This document shows positions 55,060 to 63,787 of a stretch of 64,000 bases of DNA, in pieces. Below the pieces are notes generated by a model, which saw only the letters and a program-made list of their open reading frames with translations, was not told the DNA's origin and did not search any database. The DNA comes from a virus. The stretch is taken from the IMG/VR virus record IMGVR_UViG_3300046535_001869, positions 32,001 through 96,000 of that record, one strand, 5' to 3'. How positions within the stretch are numbered: the stretch's first letter is position 1; every line of letters starts with the position of its first letter. A program made the translations under genes and the position numbers.

Positions 55060-55965
55060 ATGGCAAAGTTTCCGGACCCTCGGCGGAAGTATAAGCGGGC
55101 TTTCCGACCGCCATCGGCTCCCAGCCCGCGACCATATCGACCGCCGCTCACGCCGCAGCATCTTCGATTCGTCGATGAGTATACGCTGAGCCATGACCTT
55201 GCGATCGCAAGTAAAGCGTCCGGGGTTGATTTCGAGACTGGTAAGTCGCTATTTGCTAAACCGATAATCCAAGCGGCGATTCAGATCGCAAAGCAGCGGT
55301 CGATGCGCCGAACCGAGATCTACACTGATGAGGTCCTCCGTCGCTGGTGGCTCCTCGCTACGGCTGATGCGCGTGAGTTTACGCAGATTCGTCGAGTCAA
55401 CTGTCGCCGCTGTTGGGGTCGAAATCATCAGTATCAGTTCCGCGATAACGAATTAATCGAGGCTGAACTGGAGCATGAGCATACTCAAATTCAACTTGAC
55501 GAAAAACAACGCTATGAATTCAACGATTTAGGTGGTGGAGGTTTTGATGGATTCAAAGATCCTTGCCGAGGTCCGAAGGCGGTATCGCGTCTTTTAAGTC
55601 TCGGTGTTGATGTTGAAGCAACATCTGAGCATGATTGCCCAGCATGCGACGGCCTTGGCGAAGTCACAGTGTGGGTCAATGATTCGCGTAATTATTCGCC
55701 GGGTGCTGTGCTGCTTTACGATGGAGTGAAGGTTTCAAAAGAAGGTTCAGTCGAGATCAAGCATCGCGACCGCGATGAGGCGATGAAGATGGTAGCCCAG
55801 CACCTTGGGATGCTCGTGACCCGCAACGTCAACCTCGAACTGGACCCGACGAAGCTCACCGATGAACAGCTCGATCAGGTCCTTGAACGGTTCGGCCACC
55901 TCGCGGGACGCGAAGATGGCCCTCTTCTTGAGCATGCTCCAGCGGGAGAAGACGCGGCGGGTTGA
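55060..55965 (+). CDS. terS: terminase small subunit (Zn-finger insertion type)
   Basis: LTPQHLRFVDEY HTH; RRVNCRRCWG...CPACDGLG; LAQHLGM-like segment; lies upstream of terL. Confidence 0.8.
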   Translation: MAKFPDPRRKYKRAFRPPSAPSPRPYRPPLTPQHLRFVDEYTLSHDLAIASKASGVDFETGKSLFAKPIIQAAIQIAKQRSMRRTEIYTDEVLRRWWLLATADAREFTQIRRVNCRRCWGRNHQYQFRDNELIEAELEHEHTQIQLDEKQRYEFNDLGGGGFDGFKDPCRGPKAVSRLLSLGVDVEATSEHDCPACDGLGEVTVWVNDSRNYSPGAVLLYDGVKVSKEGSVEIKHRDRDEAMKMVAQHLGMLVTRNVNLELDPTKLTDEQLDQVLERFGHLAGREDGPLLEHAPAGEDAAG

Positions 55966-57451
55966 GGGGAGGCCGCTGCCGAATCTAGACCAAAATTGGG
56001 CTAGATCCTACGCCGGCCGCGCATCAGACTTCATCGGGGAGTTGATAGGCCCGCCCTGGCTAACCGATGACTGGTTGGCCTGGCGAGCTTTTATTAAGAC
56101 GTTATTTGGCGAATACTTGTACGATGAAGAACTGCAAGTATACCGCAAATGTACGGGCCTAGATGGTCCACCCCTTGGGCGCCAGCGCGAGGCGTGGCTG
56201 CCGGTCGGGCGTCGCGGCGGGAAGAGCCGGATGCTCGCTGCTATAGCGGTTCATCTCGGTTGCTGCTATGATTGGACACAGTATCTCTCCCCCGGAGAGA
56301 TGGGCCACGTGTTTATCGTTGCGGATCAATTGAAGCATACAACGCCGATTCTCCACTACGTCAAGGGCTTCCTGTTCAGCCACCCGAAACTCACGAAGCT
56401 AGTCGCGAAGCCTCTTGTCGAGTCTGTTGAGCTAATAGGCCAGATTAAGATCGAGGGTGTGGCAGCCTCGATCGAGGCAGTGCGGTCGAAAACAGTCGTC
56501 GCGGCGCTTCTTGATGAGATCGCGTTCTGGCAGCCGGATGAGACGCAGGCCAACCCGGACGTCGAGGTCATAAATGCCCTCCGTCCGGCGATGCTGACGA
56601 TCCCGAACGCTACCCAGCTCGCCGCCTCCTCGCGCTACGCGCGCAAGGGTGCGCTGTGGAACGCCTTCCGTGATTACCACGGCCGTGCCGAAGGTCCGCT
56701 GGTCTGGTCGGCCGACACCGTGACGATGCACCCGAGCGTTGACCAGGATTTCATCGCGGCGGAGTACGAGAAGGACCCGCTGGCCGCCGCGGCCGAGTAC
56801 GGCTTGGAGTGGCGCTCCGACGTCGCAGCGTTCGTCACGAGGGAGATCGTCGAGGCGACGGTCCCAGTTGGCGTCTTCGAGCGTGTGCCCCAGCCCGGCG
56901 TCGTCTACAAGGCGTTCACCGATCCTTCTGGTGGGTCGGCCGATTCGTTCACGCTGGCCATCGGCCACAAGGACTGGGCGACGGGCCGGGGGATACTAGA
57001 CGTGGTGCGCGAGGTAAGGCCTCCGTTCGGCCCCGAGTCGGTCGTGGGGGAGTTTGCGGAGCTGCTACGGTCGTACCGGATCGGCGAGGTGATGGGAGAT
57101 CACTATGCGGGTGAATGGCCTCGAGAGCAGTTCCGCAAGGTCGGGATCAATTACAACCTCTCCGAGGACGCAAAGTCCAGGATCTACCAGGGGTGGCTAC
57201 CCCTACTCAATAGCGGTAAAGTTGAGCTCCTCGACCTTCCACGTCTCGTGCTACAGGCCTGCGGTCTCGAACGAAGGACGAGCCGCGTCGGTAAGGATAC
57301 GATCGATCACGCCCCCGGCGGCCACGACGACGTGGTCAACGCCGTGGCCGGTGTGCTACGGCTTGTGACGGACATCGCTCAGCCGATCGTCGTCTCGAAC
57401 GAGGCGCTGATGATGAGCCGGGCGCGGGCGGCTGGGGGGATGAGGCGTTAG
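55916..57451 (+). CDS. terL: terminase large subunit
   Basis: GRRGGKS Walker A, LLDEIAFW Walker B, TDPSGG and HDD nuclease motifs; start uncertain (55862, 55916 or 55934). Confidence 0.88.
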   Translation: MALFLSMLQREKTRRVEGRPLPNLDQNWARSYAGRASDFIGELIGPPWLTDDWLAWRAFIKTLFGEYLYDEELQVYRKCTGLDGPPLGRQREAWLPVGRRGGKSRMLAAIAVHLGCCYDWTQYLSPGEMGHVFIVADQLKHTTPILHYVKGFLFSHPKLTKLVAKPLVESVELIGQIKIEGVAASIEAVRSKTVVAALLDEIAFWQPDETQANPDVEVINALRPAMLTIPNATQLAASSRYARKGALWNAFRDYHGRAEGPLVWSADTVTMHPSVDQDFIAAEYEKDPLAAAAEYGLEWRSDVAAFVTREIVEATVPVGVFERVPQPGVVYKAFTDPSGGSADSFTLAIGHKDWATGRGILDVVREVRPPFGPESVVGEFAELLRSYRIGEVMGDHYAGEWPREQFRKVGINYNLSEDAKSRIYQGWLPLLNSGKVELLDLPRLVLQACGLERRTSRVGKDTIDHAPGGHDDVVNAVAGVLRLVTDIAQPIVVSNEALMMSRARAAGGMRR

Positions 57452-57981: not shown

Positions 57982-58716
57982 ATGGAGACAGCGACGCCCC
58001 TTTTAGACACCCTCCGCCGCGACGGCATCGCCCGCGTCTACCCGCCCCTCGGCGCCGGCCCGGCGGCCGAGCTCGCCGCGTACCTGCGCGCCGCGCCGTG
58101 CTACCCGGGCCACGTGCGCGTGTACGGCGACGGGGTCGCGCGGTCGTGGGATGTTACCTCGGAGATATGTGACGTCTGGTGCCATTCCTTGGAGACGATC
58201 GTCCTGGCGCCCCATCTCTGGGACCTGGCGATTGGCCTCCTCCCGGCCGCCGCGCGGTACCTCGACGCCCCACCACGGCTCTATTCGATGAATGCCTTCT
58301 GGTCGCGCGCGTCCGCTACCGAGCCGATGCTTGACCTCCAGACCTGGCATCGCGACCGCGACGACGATAAGTTCCTCGCGCTGTTCGTCTACGGGACCGA
58401 CGTGCTATGCGAGGAGGACGGACCGCACCGGTTTATGATCGGGACCCACGACCCGAAGTGCGTGATGGCGAACTACGGACCTCCGGTCTTCGGCCCTGCC
58501 GGCACGACCTTTCTCGCCGACACGCGCGGCCTTCACATGGGGGTGAAACCAACGAGCCGCGAGCCACGCCTAATCGTCTGGGCGCGTTACGGCATCTCCG
58601 AGCGCCCGTGGGCCTACGGGCAGGATCAACTGGCGCCGGTCGCGGCAGCGCGACTCGGGGATCGCTATCCACCGGACGCGGCGACGCGGAAGATGGTGGA
58701 GCTCGTCGCGGCGTGA
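57982..58716 (+). CDS. Fe(II)/2-oxoglutarate dioxygenase (PhyH-like)
   Basis: WHRD (HxD), DGPH..GTH, GPAGT.FLADT.GLH, distal R. Confidence 0.75.
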   Translation: METATPLLDTLRRDGIARVYPPLGAGPAAELAAYLRAAPCYPGHVRVYGDGVARSWDVTSEICDVWCHSLETIVLAPHLWDLAIGLLPAAARYLDAPPRLYSMNAFWSRASATEPMLDLQTWHRDRDDDKFLALFVYGTDVLCEEDGPHRFMIGTHDPKCVMANYGPPVFGPAGTTFLADTRGLHMGVKPTSREPRLIVWARYGISERPWAYGQDQLAPVAAARLGDRYPPDAATRKMVELVAA

Positions 58717-61421
58717 AGTCCGCCACCGTAACCCGACTCCCCGGGACCCGGCGCCAGCGCGCCGCGAAGGCAGCTCCGTCGATCTCGCAGCAGGCGGTCG
58801 ATACCTCAGCCCAGCGGCGCCAGCGGCGCGTCGACCCGTTCGCGATGCCCCACCATCCGCCCGGCGTGATCCCCGCGGGCGAGGGTGGTTCGAAGATCGC
58901 CCAAGATTCCGCGATAGACGAGGCTTGGGTCTGGGCGCAGCAGTCGTTCATCAACAGCGCGGTCGCCGAGGGCACGACGTTCCTCGGCTACGCCGCGCTC
59001 TCGATCTTGGCCCAGCGCGCCGAGTACCGCGTCATCTCCGAGGAGATCGCCTCCGAGATGGTCCGCGAGTGGATAGAGCTGAAGGCGGTCGGAGACGAGG
59101 ACAAGACCGAGCGGATCGCTCAGCTCAACGCTGAGATGGAGCGGCTCGATGTCCGCGCGGCGTTCGAGCGCGGCGGCGCGGTCTACGACGGACTCTTCGG
59201 CCGCGGCCACGTCTACCTGGATACAGGTGACTCGGACGATCGCGACGAGCTGAAGACCCCGATCGGCGACGGGTGGAACTTGATGAGCCGGTCGAAGATT
59301 GGGCTCGAGGGCCACAATGGCAGGACTGAGACTAAAAAGATCCTCGCCCTGCGCCCGGTCGAACCCGTCTGGTGCTATCCGACGACGTACGATTCCAACG
59401 ACCCGCTGAAGCCAGACTGGTATTGCCCGACGACGTGGCACGTTATGGGGAAGGAGGTCCACGTCTCGCGCCTGCTGACGTTCATCGGTCGTGAGGTTCC
59501 TGACCTGTTGAAGCCCGCCTACTCCTTCGGCGGCCTCTCGATGTCCCAGATGGCCAAGCCGTACATCGACAACTGGCTGCGCACGCGCCAGTCGGTCAGC
59601 GACAAGGTGGCCTCGTTCAGCGTCCGCGGGATCAAGACCCCTGGCCTGGCGGCCTCGCTCAGCGCCGGGGGCGACCTAATCTACAAGCGCGCCGAGATCT
59701 TCAACAACATGGTCCAGAACTCCGGGCTGATGCTGCTCGACAGCACCAACGAGGAGTTTTTCGAGGTCGCGACGCCGCTCGGCGGGCTCCATGAGCTCCA
59801 AGCGCAAGCGCAGGAGCACATGGCTTCTGTGAGCAGAATACCTCTTGTCAAGCTCCTGGGCATCACCCCGTCCGGCCTGAACACCTCGACCGAGGGCGAG
59901 ATCCGCTCGTTCTACGACTGGATTGCTAGCTTCCAGGAGCACCTGTTTCGCAAGAACCTCCACGCGGTCATCGGGTTCCTCATGCTCGGGCTGTGGGGAG
60001 AGGTGGACCACGGGATCAAGTTTGAGTTCAAATCCTTGTGGCAATTGGACGAGGCGGCCCAGGTCGCGGTTGAGAAGACCAAGACAGACATCGACGACGC
60101 GAATGTCGCGATGGGTTCGGTCAGTCCCGAGGAAGTTCGCAAACGGATCGCTCAGGATCCATCCTCGACCTATGCCGGCCTCGACCTCGACCCGGACGAG
60201 CTCCCCGAGCCGCCCGGCGGCGAGATGGAGATGGGCGAGCCAGGATCGGAACTGATGGGCCATAATGGCGGCCCAGAGCTGAACGACGAGGGTGAGGTTC
60301 GCTCCCCACCGTCGCCTGGTGCCCCAAAGGGCGCGATCCCCGGCGCACGCAACCCGCGTGATAACTCGCTGTCCGTTACCTCGCGCGCCGGCAACCTCGC
60401 CTCCCCGACCGGTGGGTTCGGCGGTGATTCTTTAGCTGAGGAGGTTCATGTCTATCTTGAGGCTGTAAACGACTCCCGTCACGCTAATGACAAGTGGAAT
60501 GAGAGCGACCATCCTCGAGGCAATCCCGAGAACTCCGGCGAATTTACCTCAGGAGGCGGTGGCGGTAAAACAAGTCATCTTCATCCATCAGAAGGCAGCG
60601 GAAAAGAACGCACCGCGGTTGGTGGTGGGGGCCTTCCAGAACATATCGTTAGTCTGGCGATACCCCCTGCATGGACTGACGTGAAATACAGTTCGGATCC
60701 AAAAGCCGACCTTCTGGCGGTTGGTCGTGATGCAAAAGGCCGCGAACAGCGAATATACTCGGATGCATACCACGCGGCCCAGGCTGAGGCTAAGTTTCGA
60801 CGAATCTCCGAACTGAGTGACAAGTTCAAAGATATCAAAGCGCAGAACGAGGAGCTGCGGAAATCGCCCGATAAACGTGTCCGTGATTCTGCTGACTGCA
60901 CAGCCCTAATCATGTCGATGGGTATCCGTCCTGGCGGGGAATCGGATACTGGCGCCGATAAGTACGCTTATGGTGCGACGACGCTCAAAGGCGAGCACGT
61001 GGTTACCGAATCTGATGGTTCGGTGCGCTTGAAATTTGTTGGCAAGAAGGGCGTTGATCTCGATCTACCGGTCGAGGATCGAGGTCTCGCGCATATGCTG
61101 GTATCCCGGGCACGCAGGGCCGGCGCGAGTGGGCAGATCTTCCCCAGTACGAGCGCCGGTGCACTCCTTGGGCATGTTCACACGTTGGACGGTGGTGGGT
61201 TCAAAACAAAGGATTTTCGGACCCTGCATGGCACCAGAACAGCGATCAAAGAAGTTGCCCGCCAACCGGTACCGAGGTCGGCCTCGGCCTATAAGAAAGC
61301 CGTGCGATCAGTCGCGGCAGCGGTTGCAAGAACATTAGGCAATACCCCGACAGTCGCGCTACAATCATACATCAACCCCGTTGTTTTTGCCCGATGGAGA
61401 TTGGCAAGTGGCGCAGCATGA
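58713..61421 (+). CDS. DUF1073-type portal protein fused to a type IB DNA topoisomerase domain
   Basis: Portal: FLGY..LS.LAQRAEYR, VHVSRL, YSFGGLSMSQ, RIPLVKLLGITPSGLN. TopIB: AIPPAW, GRDAKGR.Q..Y, IRPG, FVGKKG, KDFRT, LGNT, SYINP. No stop between the two; GTGA start at 58713. Confidence 0.88.
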   Translation: MKSATVTRLPGTRRQRAAKAAPSISQQAVDTSAQRRQRRVDPFAMPHHPPGVIPAGEGGSKIAQDSAIDEAWVWAQQSFINSAVAEGTTFLGYAALSILAQRAEYRVISEEIASEMVREWIELKAVGDEDKTERIAQLNAEMERLDVRAAFERGGAVYDGLFGRGHVYLDTGDSDDRDELKTPIGDGWNLMSRSKIGLEGHNGRTETKKILALRPVEPVWCYPTTYDSNDPLKPDWYCPTTWHVMGKEVHVSRLLTFIGREVPDLLKPAYSFGGLSMSQMAKPYIDNWLRTRQSVSDKVASFSVRGIKTPGLAASLSAGGDLIYKRAEIFNNMVQNSGLMLLDSTNEEFFEVATPLGGLHELQAQAQEHMASVSRIPLVKLLGITPSGLNTSTEGEIRSFYDWIASFQEHLFRKNLHAVIGFLMLGLWGEVDHGIKFEFKSLWQLDEAAQVAVEKTKTDIDDANVAMGSVSPEEVRKRIAQDPSSTYAGLDLDPDELPEPPGGEMEMGEPGSELMGHNGGPELNDEGEVRSPPSPGAPKGAIPGARNPRDNSLSVTSRAGNLASPTGGFGGDSLAEEVHVYLEAVNDSRHANDKWNESDHPRGNPENSGEFTSGGGGGKTSHLHPSEGSGKERTAVGGGGLPEHIVSLAIPPAWTDVKYSSDPKADLLAVGRDAKGREQRIYSDAYHAAQAEAKFRRISELSDKFKDIKAQNEELRKSPDKRVRDSADCTALIMSMGIRPGGESDTGADKYAYGATTLKGEHVVTESDGSVRLKFVGKKGVDLDLPVEDRGLAHMLVSRARRAGASGQIFPSTSAGALLGHVHTLDGGGFKTKDFRTLHGTRTAIKEVARQPVPRSASAYKKAVRSVAAAVARTLGNTPTVALQSYINPVVFARWRLASGAA

Positions 61422-61620
61422 AGAAGATCAAGATCAGTTACCGGAAATTCATTTCGGCACCGCAACTGCTAAGCCGACCGTGAACTGGCGGGATGAGGAG
61501 TTCGACGATCCGGATCCTGATGATGACGAGGAACTAGCCGAAACCCCGGCCGATGTGATTAGCATGCTGGGATTTGATCCCCTGGACGACGAGCCGGATG
61601 AGTCTTCACGTTCACTTTAG
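61408..61620 (+). CDS. small highly acidic protein
   Basis: GGAGA RBS, GTG 61408; DDPDPDDDEELAETPADVISMLGFDP. Confidence 0.65.
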   Translation: MAQHEEDQDQLPEIHFGTATAKPTVNWRDEEFDDPDPDDDEELAETPADVISMLGFDPLDDEPDESSRSL

Positions 61621-63046
61621 AAGCTCGATCGATCCTGGCCGAGCTCGCCGGTTCGCTGGTCTACTTCAAAACCATGTCGGAGTCTTAGAGGAAGGCAAAT
61701 ATCTCCGTGATCCCGCCGGCACGCTATGGCGGGTGCGTGAGGTCCGCCGGGTTGTGGCGCTGGCACACGACGGCCTGGCAATGGATGAGATCTCCTGGAA
61801 AGAGGAGGAGCATCCCAGGGCGAAGAACGGCGAGTTCGCTAAGTCCTCCGAAGTTAGCCAGCACATAAAGGGCACACTCAAGACTGCCGGATATACTCCT
61901 TCCAAGTTCGGCGGGTATTATCATTCATCTGGTCACCATGTAAGAATTATGTCCCCCGAGGGCGGGCAGAAACTGTCCTCAATCTGGGAGCACCGGCATG
62001 GGGGGACAAACAAGTTTGCCCACGGTTTCGGTTCGCCGAGTTTGTTGGCATATTTAGACAAAATCAAAAAACAGCCCGAGGCGAAGACTGAGACTCCAAA
62101 GGTCGAGCCAAAGGTCGAGGCTGAGATCTCGAAGACCGCGATAAAGCTTCCAAAGAAGCCTGGCCCCATCACCTCGCCCTCGAATGCGCATAATCAGAAG
62201 CATCTCGATACGTTAGAGGCACTGGCCCTCGCAGGGAAGTGGGACGCGCTCCTCGCGTACAAGAACAAGCTGAAGGGGAGTAATGGCTACGCAAGAATGA
62301 TCCAGAAGTACGGCGACGAGTTGCTTGCTGCCCGGTCGCAGACCGGGGAGGTCACGAAGAACGAACTGAAAACCACGCAATCGTACGAAGATGGATTAGA
62401 GTTCCACGCGACAGATACTGTTAGTGAACTCTTTCAATCTCGTGTGAAAACTACGTGGAGTATGTTACCCGAAAGCGTGAAGAGTGCGGTCGTAAAAAAC
62501 GGCACGCAGGTTCGCATGGGATTTTCTACAACGGAGGTAATGCCACATCTTAAAGATATGGCACCAAGAGGTTGGCCCAAGGGGAGCACCTGGGACATGG
62601 CGGAGGGACTTTATAGTCCATCTATAAACTCCGTAGTAGTGTCTGAAAATCTCTATGATAGAAGTCTCCGGGAATTTATTCCAACGCCTCGCGCCAAGGC
62701 GGTATTACGGCACGAAATAGGTCATGCATACGATCGTGCTTTGGCGAATAGTACAGATCCAGGGGTCGAGTATTCTCAGTCGCAGAAGTTCCGCGAAGAC
62801 TATAATGATGATTACAACGCAATGGATTTGAAGGCTGGTAGATATTCTGGAATAGGTTATTATCTGCAAGAGGGCAATGCTGGACCGTCCGAGACATTCG
62901 CTGAGATAACTGCCCAAGTTATGGCAGAAGTGGGAAGCGAAGGGGTCCTTGGGACCGGTGGCTCTAGTCTAGTGTTTTTAAAGGACTGGTTTCCAAAGAC
63001 ATATGCACACATAAAAACCCTAATCATTGGAGAGACCGAGGCGTGA
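61598..63046 (+). CDS. putative virion-associated protein with C-terminal anthrax-lethal-factor-like zinc metallopeptidase domain
   Basis: WKEEEHPRAKNGEF tag; GLY...LRHEIGHAYD...SQKF...Y...SETFAE. Confidence 0.75.
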   Translation: MSLHVHFRSSIDPGRARRFAGLLQNHVGVLEEGKYLRDPAGTLWRVREVRRVVALAHDGLAMDEISWKEEEHPRAKNGEFAKSSEVSQHIKGTLKTAGYTPSKFGGYYHSSGHHVRIMSPEGGQKLSSIWEHRHGGTNKFAHGFGSPSLLAYLDKIKKQPEAKTETPKVEPKVEAEISKTAIKLPKKPGPITSPSNAHNQKHLDTLEALALAGKWDALLAYKNKLKGSNGYARMIQKYGDELLAARSQTGEVTKNELKTTQSYEDGLEFHATDTVSELFQSRVKTTWSMLPESVKSAVVKNGTQVRMGFSTTEVMPHLKDMAPRGWPKGSTWDMAEGLYSPSINSVVVSENLYDRSLREFIPTPRAKAVLRHEIGHAYDRALANSTDPGVEYSQSQKFREDYNDDYNAMDLKAGRYSGIGYYLQEGNAGPSETFAEITAQVMAEVGSEGVLGTGGSSLVFLKDWFPKTYAHIKTLIIGETEA

Positions 63047-63252
63047 AATTGTTTTTCATTACTAGCGAGAACGAGATTACCGTTGAAGGTTACATGAAGG
63101 GTGACGACGGTACGGTCGCTCAATACCATGATGTCATCAAGCCCAAAGGTAATGTCTTCGATGTTCCTTATGAGGAACTATCGGTTCACAAGGCCGGCGA
63201 GATCGAAGTTAACGACGACGGCTATATAATTCATGCGTACACTGATGCTTGA
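63043..63252 (+). CDS. small acidic hypothetical protein
   Basis: GTGA coupling to the peptidase gene. Confidence 0.6.
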   Translation: MKLFFITSENEITVEGYMKGDDGTVAQYHDVIKPKGNVFDVPYEELSVHKAGEIEVNDDGYIIHAYTDA

Positions 63253-63787
63253 TTCCATCCTCAACCACCCCCGCTACGCCCCTTACCACGGCTGGCACGA
63301 CGATCACCGCGCCGCCGATGGCACCCCGGCCTATCTCCCAGCGATGCAGCAGGTCCGCGAGGAGTTCATCGAGTTCCTGCGCGTCGTCCCCGAGCGTGGC
63401 TCGTGCCTACAGCTCGGCCTGGGCGAGTGCGACGCCTCCCACGCCGTTTGGTGCAGCCTGTTCGCCCACGTCGTGACGATTGACTGGCGCGCGTGCTTGG
63501 TTAACGAGGATAGCTACCCAGGCGCCGATACACGATCGCGTGAGGCAATCACCCTGGCCGTACGCTACGCGCCGTATGACCTAGTCTTCATCGACGCTGG
63601 TCACTCGTTCGTCGACGTCCAGCACGACTACCTCCACTACCGCGAGATGCTGCGCCCCGGCGGGATCGTCGCGCTTCACGACGCGCTGCCGCGCCCGACC
63701 TACCCCGAGGTCGAGGTCCATAAGCTCATCGCGATGCTGCCCGGCGTCAAGATTATCGGAAATGAGGTGGGGATAGCCTGGTTATGA
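63245..63787 (+). CDS. class I SAM-dependent methyltransferase (Methyltransf_24-like)
   Basis: LQLG, VTID, DLVFIDAGHS...D...LRPGGIVALHD. Confidence 0.8.
   Translation: MLDSILNHPRYAPYHGWHDDHRAADGTPAYLPAMQQVREEFIEFLRVVPERGSCLQLGLGECDASHAVWCSLFAHVVTIDWRACLVNEDSYPGADTRSREAITLAVRYAPYDLVFIDAGHSFVDVQHDYLHYREMLRPGGIVALHDALPRPTYPEVEVHKLIAMLPGVKIIGNEVGIAWL

Follow-up and report, generated by a model that had tools for sequence, protein, structure and literature searches.

Taken as a whole, the locus described here is best explained as a capsid-cargo section made up of header-tagged enzymes with cognate acidic partners, and we lean toward this reading. The source genome is that of a complete tailed phage of approximately 109 kb, and the locus, found in a stretch of 64,000 nucleotides (the window), would be the cargo section of its head module. 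The header is conserved, widespread, and apparently undescribed; literature searches with motif strings and for portal–topoisomerase fusions and phage Pro-Pro endopeptidases found no description. Judged from sequence and placement, this tag probably marks proteins that are carried inside the capsid. The features of the window are as follows.

58713-60419, plus strand: portal proper (PF06381/DUF1073 type) and a Pro/Gly/acidic linker, the 5' part of the portal–topoisomerase ORF
58899-58907, plus strand: A-Q-D near the portal N-terminus, read from the translation; a candidate protease site at which cleavage may occur
60483-60545, plus strand: tag copy 1, A-N-D, then KWNESDHPRGNPENSGEF, then a Gly run
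60645-61421, plus strand: type IB topoisomerase (TopIB) cargo domain (PF21338, E 1e-9; PF01028, E 1.8e-19)
61408-61620, plus strand: small acidic partner 1, 70 aa, pI 4.05, following TopIB
61598-63046, plus strand: tagged peptidase gene, with its start at ATG 61598 or GTG 61733
61775-61837, plus strand: tag copy 2, L-A-M-D, then EISWKEEEHPRAKNGEF
62345-63043, plus strand: M34 zincin domain, close to Pro-Pro endopeptidases by profile and predicted fold
63043-63252, plus strand: small acidic partner 2, 69 aa, pI 4.39, directly after the peptidase gene

The original prediction had noticed a common pattern in two head-module proteins that carry different enzymes, and the coordinates and sequences it gave for the tags, the HEXXH, and the small ORFs were confirmed on re-reading. 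Positions 60486-60545 encode NDKWNESDHPRGNPENSGEF, which lies between the portal domain (PF06381) and TopIB (PF21338 and PF01028) in a single ORF, and 61778-61837 encode AMDEISWKEEEHPRAKNGEF. The sharing is real and not due to chance: in a six-frame search of the 109-kb genome, the strict motif [FW]-x-E-x-x-H-P-R-x(2-9)-G-x-F has three copies, compared with 0.01 expected from residue shuffles. Two of them are in the window, at the portal–TopIB junction and at the start of the peptidase; the third lies beyond it, at the N-terminal end of L001:4289-7864, a single protein consisting of the tag, a NUDIX domain, and a DUF2213 head protease. Thus, this phage has TopIB fused to its portal, NUDIX fused to its head protease, and an M34 peptidase that is encoded alone. 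The header is laid out as [A/G]-x-D, one to three residues, [FW]-x-E-x-x-H-P-R, either GQPxNxGQF or DxxGKF, and a Gly-rich stretch. The predicted core, from A-x-D through W-x-E-x-x-HPR to GEF, stands, and A-x-D belongs to it, being present upstream in 62% of 105 tags versus 4.8% of random 9-mers. An "HVx" element had also been proposed as part of the pattern, but HV occurs upstream of 3 of 66 tags, the same as in a control window, and can be attributed to chance.

As had been anticipated, the tag is enriched in the head module, ahead of unrelated enzymes. Among 120 portal homologs, 59 have it at the matching position, and every one of these 59 has C-terminal cargo; none of the plain, cargo-free portals of 500-600 aa in the same set carries it, and portals with several cargos have one tag at each junction. 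No portal–cargo junction in these relatives lacks the motif. All 31 strict tags found in 1.12 Mb of portal loci are on the same strand as the portal, with none on the opposite strand, and 30 of the 31 belong to a portal extension or lie no more than 9 kb downstream. The H, P, R, Glu, and aromatic residues are 99-100% conserved in GC-rich and AT-rich phages alike, in proteins whose identity is otherwise less than 50%. In AlphaFold2 models, the tag has a pLDDT of 55-65 and adjoins a disordered linker, as would be expected of a short linear motif. It is missing from many cargo proteins, and just 11 of 149 peptidase homologs carry it. A tblastn search of GenBank phages with the 42-aa tag gave marginal matches only, one of which led to the tagged portal of Xanthomonas phage PhiXhv-5. 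In PhiXhv-5/-7, the portal reads AED-AQWEENKHPRADNGQF, and the capsid protein has Y-A-N-D followed by AISLAPTL.

The enzymes behind the two tags in the window can be assigned to families. The portal part of the first gene, whose recorded product is 902 aa, matches Pfam PF06381 (E 5.5e-73) and phrog_146 (E 5e-91). Its cargo domain scores above the cut-offs for both PF21338 and PF01028 and has the complete TopIB catalytic pentad, R (IRPG), K (GKKG), R (KDFRT), N (LGNT), and Y (SYI), which is invariant in alignments A1, A6, and A9. In the second gene, the predicted combination of a tag and an HEXXH...ETFAE peptidase held up: translation gives HEIGH at 62711-62725, then the Tyr and Glu of Y..Q....SETFAE. 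The proposed start at MSLHVHF is less certain, as the recorded product begins at GTG 61733, which would exclude it, and GC3 did not decide between this codon and ATG 61598. Profile and predicted fold place the peptidase among the M34 zincins, nearest to the Pro-Pro endopeptidases. Its profile matches PPEP-2 (6fpc) with E 1.7e-14, and its domain model (AlphaFold2 pLDDT 90.2) has as its top Foldseek matches PPEP-2 (6fpc; E 1.4e-8, TM 0.72 on target), PPEP-3 (9g0j), PPEP-1, and then anthrax lethal factor. Since Pfam ATLF (PF07737) scored 19.8 bits against a gathering cut-off of 27.4, M34 membership rests on the profile match to the PDB entry and on the fold. An exhaustive HMMER search found 993 cluster representatives at E<=1e-3, and a word-indexed search returned the self match only. 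HExxH is kept in all 149 homologs inspected, and Y172 and E183 (catalytic Tyr and third zinc-ligand Glu) are invariant in alignment A3, where they align with the PPEP-2 and PPEP-1 residues. In a crude secretion test, 7 of 80 bacterial homologs had a hydrophobic N-terminus. Neither peptidase nor TopIB homologs were found in 50,697 GenBank phage records.

Each of these genes had been said to be followed by an overlapping gene for a small acidic protein, and both turn out to be conserved cognate partners. The ORF at 63043-63252 overlaps the stop of the peptidase gene and has a GGAGA-like ribosome-binding site. Its family motif is R.EGDG.IGD...PG....TYEEL; the copy in the window has A-Q in place of the family's G-D. 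Of 40 phage loci, 26 have this partner directly behind the peptidase gene; in bacterial genomes, the count is 6 of 80 loci. Modeling the pair, as the original prediction had suggested, placed the partner in the catalytic cleft with a score of 0.88, compared with 0.00 for the best control; for reference, 58 of the 80 solved complexes reached this mark, as did 2 of the 110 mismatched pairs. At least 84% of contacts are shared between runs, and the partner pLDDT is at least 79. Residues 15-30 of the partner occupy the cleft, residues 23-26 pair with edge strand 85-93 over the zinc site, and the modeled interface takes in this strand together with H123, H127, Y172, and E183. Partner 2 is thus predicted to plug the active site of the peptidase.

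Partner 1 (61408-61620) likewise overlaps the stop of its upstream gene, that of TopIB, behind a GGAGA-like ribosome-binding site, and has 24 D+E against 3 K+R. A single-sequence locus search with it gave no matches; loci were found with a two-sequence alignment as the query, and a homolog begins -15 to +72 nt from the TopIB stop in 52 of 77 IMG/VR TopIB loci. The family motif, from alignment A7, is HFG..KP..W..DDPDPDD...TP.DV..MLGFDP (alignment A8 was discarded, with free acidic proteins mis-placed in it). Neither partner family has a match in Pfam or the PDB, and the ESM Atlas likewise gave nothing usable.

It is possible, though we consider it the less probable account, that the small acidic proteins are co-packaged accessory modules, such as chaperones, adaptors, or charge spacers, a reading that concerns the TopIB partner in particular. 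In L242, L288, and L248, this partner is joined in cis to the end of TopIB; in L127/L213 and L235, it is fused to the N-terminus of the DUF2213 protease; and in L065 and L248, it precedes the next tag or cargo module. L049, in which the TopIB core is deleted, still has it. In the AlphaFold2 model of a natural fusion, TopIB folds well and the acidic module has a pLDDT below 50 except for a short C-terminal helix. These fused states and the predicted disorder suit a co-packaged module at least as well as a DNA mimic. In L088 and L113, a cis fusion likewise places the peptidase partner behind its enzyme. Partners fused to the peptidase, the protease, or the next cargo would be packaged too, rather than left behind. 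However, the peptidase partner is modeled squarely over the zinc site, and its being common beside phage peptidases and rare beside their chromosomal homologs fits a need to silence a cytoplasmic enzyme.

The A-x-D element may be where the cargo is cut. Near the portal N-terminus, the predicted A-Q-D proved to be real and conserved, with D invariant and A at least 90% conserved in 28 homologs. In 38 of 40 homologs, the motif [LI]-A-[FLM]-D adjoins the N-terminal edge of the DUF2213 head-protease domain. The major capsid protein has a near-invariant L-A-M-D-A-Q-P in its N-terminal region (43 homologs), and the L-A-M-D of tag copy 2 fits the pattern of the capsid protein and the protease boundary. 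Because A-x-D recurs at these places in the capsid protein, protease, and portal, it is a plausible head-protease cut site. For comparison, gp245 of phage SPN3US cleaves after A-X-E (PMC10052503). In phage E217, gp25 has A62-M63-D64, and cryo-EM sees only residues 66-382 (PMC10329688). The E217 motif ends two residues ahead of the first ordered residue, data that fit a disordered, uncut N-terminus equally well.

A-x-D and the tag are coupled, and the tag may therefore serve only as a recognition element for processing, an exosite that steers the head protease or another peptidase to A-x-D, with no role in loading or ejection. Cargo would then enter the head via portal or protease fusion, or via other leaders. 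An enzyme fused to the portal can do without a loading signal, and the role of the tag may thus be confined to processing; here, fusion to the portal or protease already anchors two of the three tagged proteins, and in some stand-alone tagged proteins the tag is preceded by an N-terminal leader of its own, 18-70 aa long. On the other hand, stand-alone cargo genes may open directly at the tag (e.g., L004:9497-10096 and the TopIB of L127) and have nothing to remove; their N-terminus is where an A-x-D cut would put it. H-P-R and G-x-F are also more conserved than the A-x-D of the same tag. We consider a purely processing role doubtful.

It also seems unlikely that the peptidase, rather than being an anti-host effector that may attack host defence proteins, as the original prediction had proposed, cuts the Pro-rich linkers of the phage's own cargo polyproteins after delivery, a role suggested for the zincin domains of polyvalent proteins by Iyer et al. 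(PMC5512222). The closest solved relatives of the peptidase cleave Pro-Pro bonds, the portal linker here holds EPPG and SPPSPG, and the peptidase and TopIB recur together in L090 (as one ORF), L119, and L122. However, most phages with tagged cargo lack the peptidase, most phage copies of the peptidase lack the tag, and Pro-Pro specificity is not readable from the sequence. Finally, the tag always lies at module boundaries, is Gly-rich and predicted to be disordered, and accompanies cassettes of 45-56% G+C in a genome of 62%, as for swapped modules, but we find it highly improbable that it is a neutral junction left from module shuffling, because a functionless linker would drift and the key residues of the tag have stayed nearly fixed across divergent phages.

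Returning to the capsid-cargo reading, we infer cleavage, packaging, injection, and inhibition; the basis in hand is the conservation and placement of the motif, the domain identities, the synteny of the partners, and the predicted peptidase–partner interface. Enzymes would travel inside the capsid fused to the portal, fused to the head protease, or as stand-alone proteins, and each cargo module would open with the same disordered header. The Asp of A-x-D would be the residue behind which the DUF2213 head protease cuts, just as cleavage by T4 gp21 and SPN3US gp245 follows A/L-x-E, and this would free each module and leave the H-P-R header as its new N-terminus. The header may be a common handle that brings cargo into the procapsid or holds it there, and it possibly guides exit. 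Partner 2 would act as a pseudo-substrate plug of the catalytic cleft, so that the peptidase is silent in the producing cell, and partner 1, acidic and disordered, would regulate TopIB or accompany it. More tentatively, and with rather less confidence, we suggest that the header is a portable cargo signal that spans lineages, docks on the procapsid core (protease-scaffold or portal), and is kept after the A-x-D cut as the N-terminus of the enzyme. Phages could then exchange entire header–enzyme–inhibitor cassettes, including those of a virion-borne TopIB and a Pro-Pro-endopeptidase-like protease, with each enzyme kept silent until injection by a small acidic protein of its own.

Some elements of this arrangement have counterparts in known systems. 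The internal proteins and Alt of T4 have a capsid-targeting sequence and are processed by gp21 (Mullaney and Black 1996, as summarized in PMC9958956), and the ejection proteins of SPN3US/phiKZ are cut by gp245 after A-X-E (PMC10052503). In common with these, a short peptide is shared by unrelated proteins of the capsid interior (as predicted here from sequence), and the candidate prohead-protease site, a small residue, any residue, and an acidic one, is found on the protease, portal, capsid protein, and cargo. However, the tag has no sequence similarity to either system, it also occurs at internal junctions of portal- and protease-fused polyproteins, and the protease is of the DUF2213 type, for which P1 would be Asp. 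The T4 targeting sequence is removed, whereas the tag comes after the candidate A-x-D cut and would thus be retained by the mature cargo. Phage-type polyvalent proteins (PMC5512222) resemble the present ones in having NUDIX, ART, and zincin domains in the head module that are portal-fused and predicted to be injected; here, the portal and TopIB share one protein, and the tag, NUDIX, and DUF2213 protease share another. That report lists no TopIB cargo ("topoisomerase" appears once, in a reference) and does not mention an H-P-R header, and in contrast to its systems, one cargo here is unfused and bears the header alone.

Of the MuF toxins studied by Jamet et al. 2017 (PMC5576092), 20% were metallopeptidases, and 89% were followed by a small ORF. 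As in these polymorphic toxins, a variable enzyme domain on a head protein is followed by a small ORF, which overlaps the enzyme gene and is predicted by modeling to bind its product. Unlike in MuF toxins, the peptidase protein lacks a MuF domain (MuF is a separate gene, L001:2049-2849), and the partner family lacks a known domain and is fused in cis in some phages. The peptidase resembles PPEP-1/Zmp1, PPEP-2, PPEP-3, and the catalytic domain of anthrax lethal factor in its fold and PRGW loop, and, like them, it has HExxH with the Tyr and the Glu ligand farther downstream. It differs from them in being only 16-22% identical, in lacking a signal peptide, and in being encoded among head genes and paired with a small partner. 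The TopIB has the full catalytic pentad of the poxvirus and bacterial enzymes, its Asn being of the bacterial type. Vaccinia virions also contain a packaged TopIB. In contrast to these enzymes, phage TopIB is either portal-fused behind a tag or stand-alone with one, and has a small acidic partner.

Proteins injected with phage DNA are the first to act in infection. Outside T4, P1, N4, and the giant phages, we know of no rule for the choice of proteins that are packaged and injected. A conserved header would supply such a rule, together with a candidate protease site that is common to the capsid protein and the protease. It would let cargo proteins be spotted in metagenomic phages from sequence alone, and it could be used as a handle by which foreign proteins are loaded into capsids. 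The two enzyme–partner pairs, TopIB with its disordered acidic module and the M34 peptidase with its predicted pseudo-substrate plug, are purifiable biochemical systems.

The window is bases 32001-96000 of one 109,299-bp contig whose first 100 bases are repeated 127 bp from its end; the assembly is therefore circularly closed and is a complete phage genome. Its head module is arranged as follows:

55060-57451, + strand: small and large terminase
58713-61421, + strand: portal ORF, 3' of the terminases and 5' of the tagged peptidase gene
beyond the window, + strand, in this order: MuF, a 1191-aa DUF2213-ending protein, scaffold, cement protein, major capsid protein

All of the sequences cited in the original prediction were found where it had placed them. 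The portal ORF runs from PF06381 (E 5.5e-73) through a Pro/Gly/acidic linker, the tag and a Gly run into a bacterial-type type IB topoisomerase (TopIB; PF21338 and PF01028) with five of five catalytic residues present, and a second tag lies in the next large ORF, which has a HEIGH...SETFAE domain at its C-terminus. When all six frames of the complete genome were scanned for [FWY]-x-[ED]-x-x-HPR-x(2-9)-G-x-[FWY], as had been proposed originally for the rest of the genome, three matches were found vs 0.01 expected from shuffles. The third, beyond the window, is the extreme N-terminus (...ATARDVFEESAHPRGQPDNPGQF) of the 1191-aa NUDIX-plus-protease protein, which ends in a DUF2213 head-maturation protease; weaker copies (KHDPKTGQF, twice) recur inside the same protein, at junctions further along. 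The "HVx" once counted as part of the tag fared worse, occurring upstream of 3 of 66 homolog tags, equal to a control window; since the peptidase product on record starts at GTG 61733, "HVx" may lie outside the translated protein of that ORF.

Several other features of this region were noted (L-numbers denote retrieved related loci, L001 and L291 being from the window's own genome). Neither Pfam nor PHROG matches the 244-aa ORF (57982-58716) that lies between large terminase and portal. The overlap of this ORF with the 5' extension of the portal's long reading frame makes GTG 58713 the most likely portal start. A Methyltransf_24 (SAM-dependent methyltransferase) gene at 63233-63787, within the head module, shares its first 20 nt with the end of the peptidase partner gene; L043 has a homolog (56% identity) close to its portal. 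Between MuF and the NUDIX-protease gene, outside the window and on the opposite strand, is a gene for a homing endonuclease (L291:5997-6704, - strand, genome 98996-99703; phrog_655 E 1e-25, NUMOD3). The NUDIX-protease protein also contains a conserved motif, ATDPPVSE.QRRAM.AA..GHSTLGI (phrog_16759, 58 aa; L001:5100-5230), found again at the N-terminus of a relative's protease (L004:10180-10290). Across 60600-63252, G+C is 56% in TopIB, 54% in its acidic partner, 50% in the peptidase and 45% in the peptidase partner, below the genome's ~62%, which suggests that the cargo cassettes were acquired as mobile modules.

The tag occurs in 59 of the best 120 portal homologs, and all 59 have a C-terminal extension (TopIB, ADP-ribosyltransferase, zeta-toxin-like kinase, acetyltransferase, Hint or InPase); it is found in none of the plain 500-600-aa portals among them. 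Multi-cargo portals have one tag at each junction. The strict form was also counted in 80 portal loci of IMG/VR (1.12 Mb): 31 copies are on the portal strand and 0 on the opposite strand, and 30 of the 31 lie either within the portal extension or in ORFs a few kb 3' of it. Some stand-alone cargo genes open right at the tag; L004 has such an ART-like gene, and L127 such a free TopIB. Conservation over 105 distinct copies is 100% for H, P and R and 99% for Glu; the aromatic is always F or W, and G-x-F mostly follows after 3 or 6 residues. When a tagged TopIB was modelled with AlphaFold2, the tag had a pLDDT of 55-65 and was followed by ~45 disordered residues, a predicted disorder with the profile of a short linear motif. 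Judged by its distribution in these sequences, the tag is a widespread junction header, and its sharing by head-module proteins with different enzymes, as originally proposed, extends to the portal extensions and downstream ORFs of relatives. Our literature search found no paper that mentions it. Elsewhere, the AT-rich phage L119 (5056-10916) has a different repeated header, GGPGSGNFGHVGRPG..GGSG, before its peptidase, its TopIB and three or more further modules, which looks like a second cargo-header type. In L129/L130:3955-5586, an N-terminal helical leader (RLD..LA..D.M..RVDALCA.R.D, ending at A-x-D) is common to a tagged, free TopIB and to the gene that follows the acidic partner of this TopIB; the leader may be a separate targeting helix.

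A-x-D lies within nine residues before the tag aromatic in 62% of tags vs 4.8% of random 9-mers ([AG]-x-D, 75% vs 7.9%). The motif recurs in the head proteins, at places where a head protease would be expected to act. At its N-terminal edge, the DUF2213 domain is adjoined by [LI]-A-[FLM]-D in 38 of 40 homologs, and A-Q-D often stands a few residues ahead (VAQD-MALATD-KRTYD in this genome); L-A-M-D-A-Q-P is near-invariant ~45 residues into the capsid protein (43 homologs; here I-A-M-D47|A48); and A-x-D is conserved at the portal N-terminus. The capsid protein aligns with gp25 of Pseudomonas phage E217 (27% identity) starting exactly at the I-A-M-D site, and gp25 carries A62-M63-D64; cryo-EM of E217 shows gp25 residues 66-382 (PMC10329688). 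The substrates of gp245, a giant-phage protease that cuts after A-X-E, include the portal, the capsid protein, the ejection proteins and gp245 itself (PMC10052503). Given this precedent and the recurrence of A-x-D at tags, DUF2213 edge, capsid and portal, cleavage by the head protease after the Asp is a reasonable inference. Such a cut would leave a mature cargo N-terminus 1-3 residues ahead of the tag aromatic, which is where the stand-alone tagged genes start. The portal of E217, a cultured phage, is gp19 (L294:125-2422); it has a V-A-M-D motif near residue 70 and no H-P-R tag, and its C-terminal extension of ~240 aa is left out of the cryo-EM model, which covers residues 97-528 of 765.

A word-index homolog search with the peptidase matched only itself; exhaustive HMMER gave 993 cluster representatives (E<=1e-3), with matches spanning only residues ~270-445. 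HExxH is kept in 149 of 149 homologs inspected, 11 of which have an upstream tag. A 41-sequence profile matches PPEP-2 (Pro-Pro endopeptidase, 6fpc, E 1.7e-14), PPEP-1/Zmp1 and PPEP-3, and more weakly anthrax lethal factor; Foldseek with the AlphaFold2 model (pLDDT 90.2, pTM 0.89) gave the same ranking, and the Pfam ATLF score falls short of its cut-off. By profile and predicted fold, the domain is an M34 zincin.

The small gene after the peptidase, originally proposed as its partner, proved conserved: an HMM of its family matches directly 3' of the peptidase ORF in 26 of 40 IMG/VR loci, is fused in cis just after the peptidase domain in two more (L088 and L113), and follows the peptidase in 6 of 80 bacterial-genome loci, mostly as weak matches. 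Members have 56-90 aa, a pI mostly of 4.2-5.8 and the motif R.EGDG.IGD...PG....TYEEL, and had no match in Pfam, PDB or Atlas. Structural modeling, also proposed originally, scored the peptidase with the 69-aa protein at 0.88 vs 0.00 for the best of three controls; of 80 solved complexes, 58 attained the mark used, as did 2 of 110 mismatched pairs, counts that are only rough because own alignments were used. Runs agreed in at least 84% of contacts, with partner pLDDT of at least 79. The modelled interface comprises both His of HExxH, Y172, E183, the PRGWP loop and edge strand 85-93. This model supports binding of the peptidase by the 69-aa protein, and the substrate-like course of partner residues 23-26 along the edge strand fits a pseudo-substrate plug. 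MuF toxins likewise combine a head-protein toxin with a small downstream ORF, and 20% are metallopeptidases (PMC5576092); their carrier is MuF, whereas that of the peptidase here is the tag. After some phage peptidase genes comes another kind of small protein (~75 aa, C..C...C(K/R)AFPDGIP...G.(F/W)DH), which may be an alternative zinc-binding partner family:

L084:6594-6824, ~75-aa protein
L089:4556-4780, the same
L106:7245-7433, the same
L109:1803-2024, the same
L110:6594-6824, the same

Peptidase and TopIB co-occur repeatedly (L090:4455-6908, L122, L119). In L090 they are fused in one ORF followed by the peptidase partner, and L122 has the order peptidase, partner, TopIB, acidic partner.

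The acidic gene after TopIB was likewise predicted to be a partner. An HMM of its product matches at -15 to +72 nt from the TopIB stop in 52 of 77 independent IMG/VR TopIB loci; another 3 loci have an in-frame fusion, and in 5 the match lies at some other place in the locus, as in L004, where a GIY-YIG homing-endonuclease gene is inserted between the two. The pairing is kept with portal-fused or free TopIB and in GC-rich or AT-rich phages. The acidic module is also fused to the DUF2213 protease N-terminus (L127/L213, L235), placed ahead of the next tag (L065, L248), and kept in L049, where the TopIB core is deleted. Given this linkage, joint travel and fusion, the 70-aa protein is a genuine TopIB-linked module. 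In the deletion derivative (L049:5550-7616; also L125, L126), the portal keeps the tag and a TopIB N-terminal stub to which the acidic partner is joined in frame, the catalytic core being lost. AlphaFold2 predicts the acidic module of a natural fusion to be disordered save for a short helix at an LGFDP-like motif; the module may act as an inhibitor or as a DNA mimic, or be a co-packaged accessory.

The original interpretation of tag and partners as a capsid-cargo effector system is thus partly supported: the tag on head-module enzymes and the conserved partner pairs stand, and the "HVx" element does not. The nearest known capsid-cargo systems are the T4 capsid-targeting sequence with gp21, polyvalent proteins and MuF-toxin proteins. 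Neither the header nor either of the partner families appears to have been described before. The original observation itself is confirmed, and the analysis extends it by a third protein with the tag, by the conservation of two partner families, and by a candidate protease-site motif common to the tag, the capsid protein and the protease.
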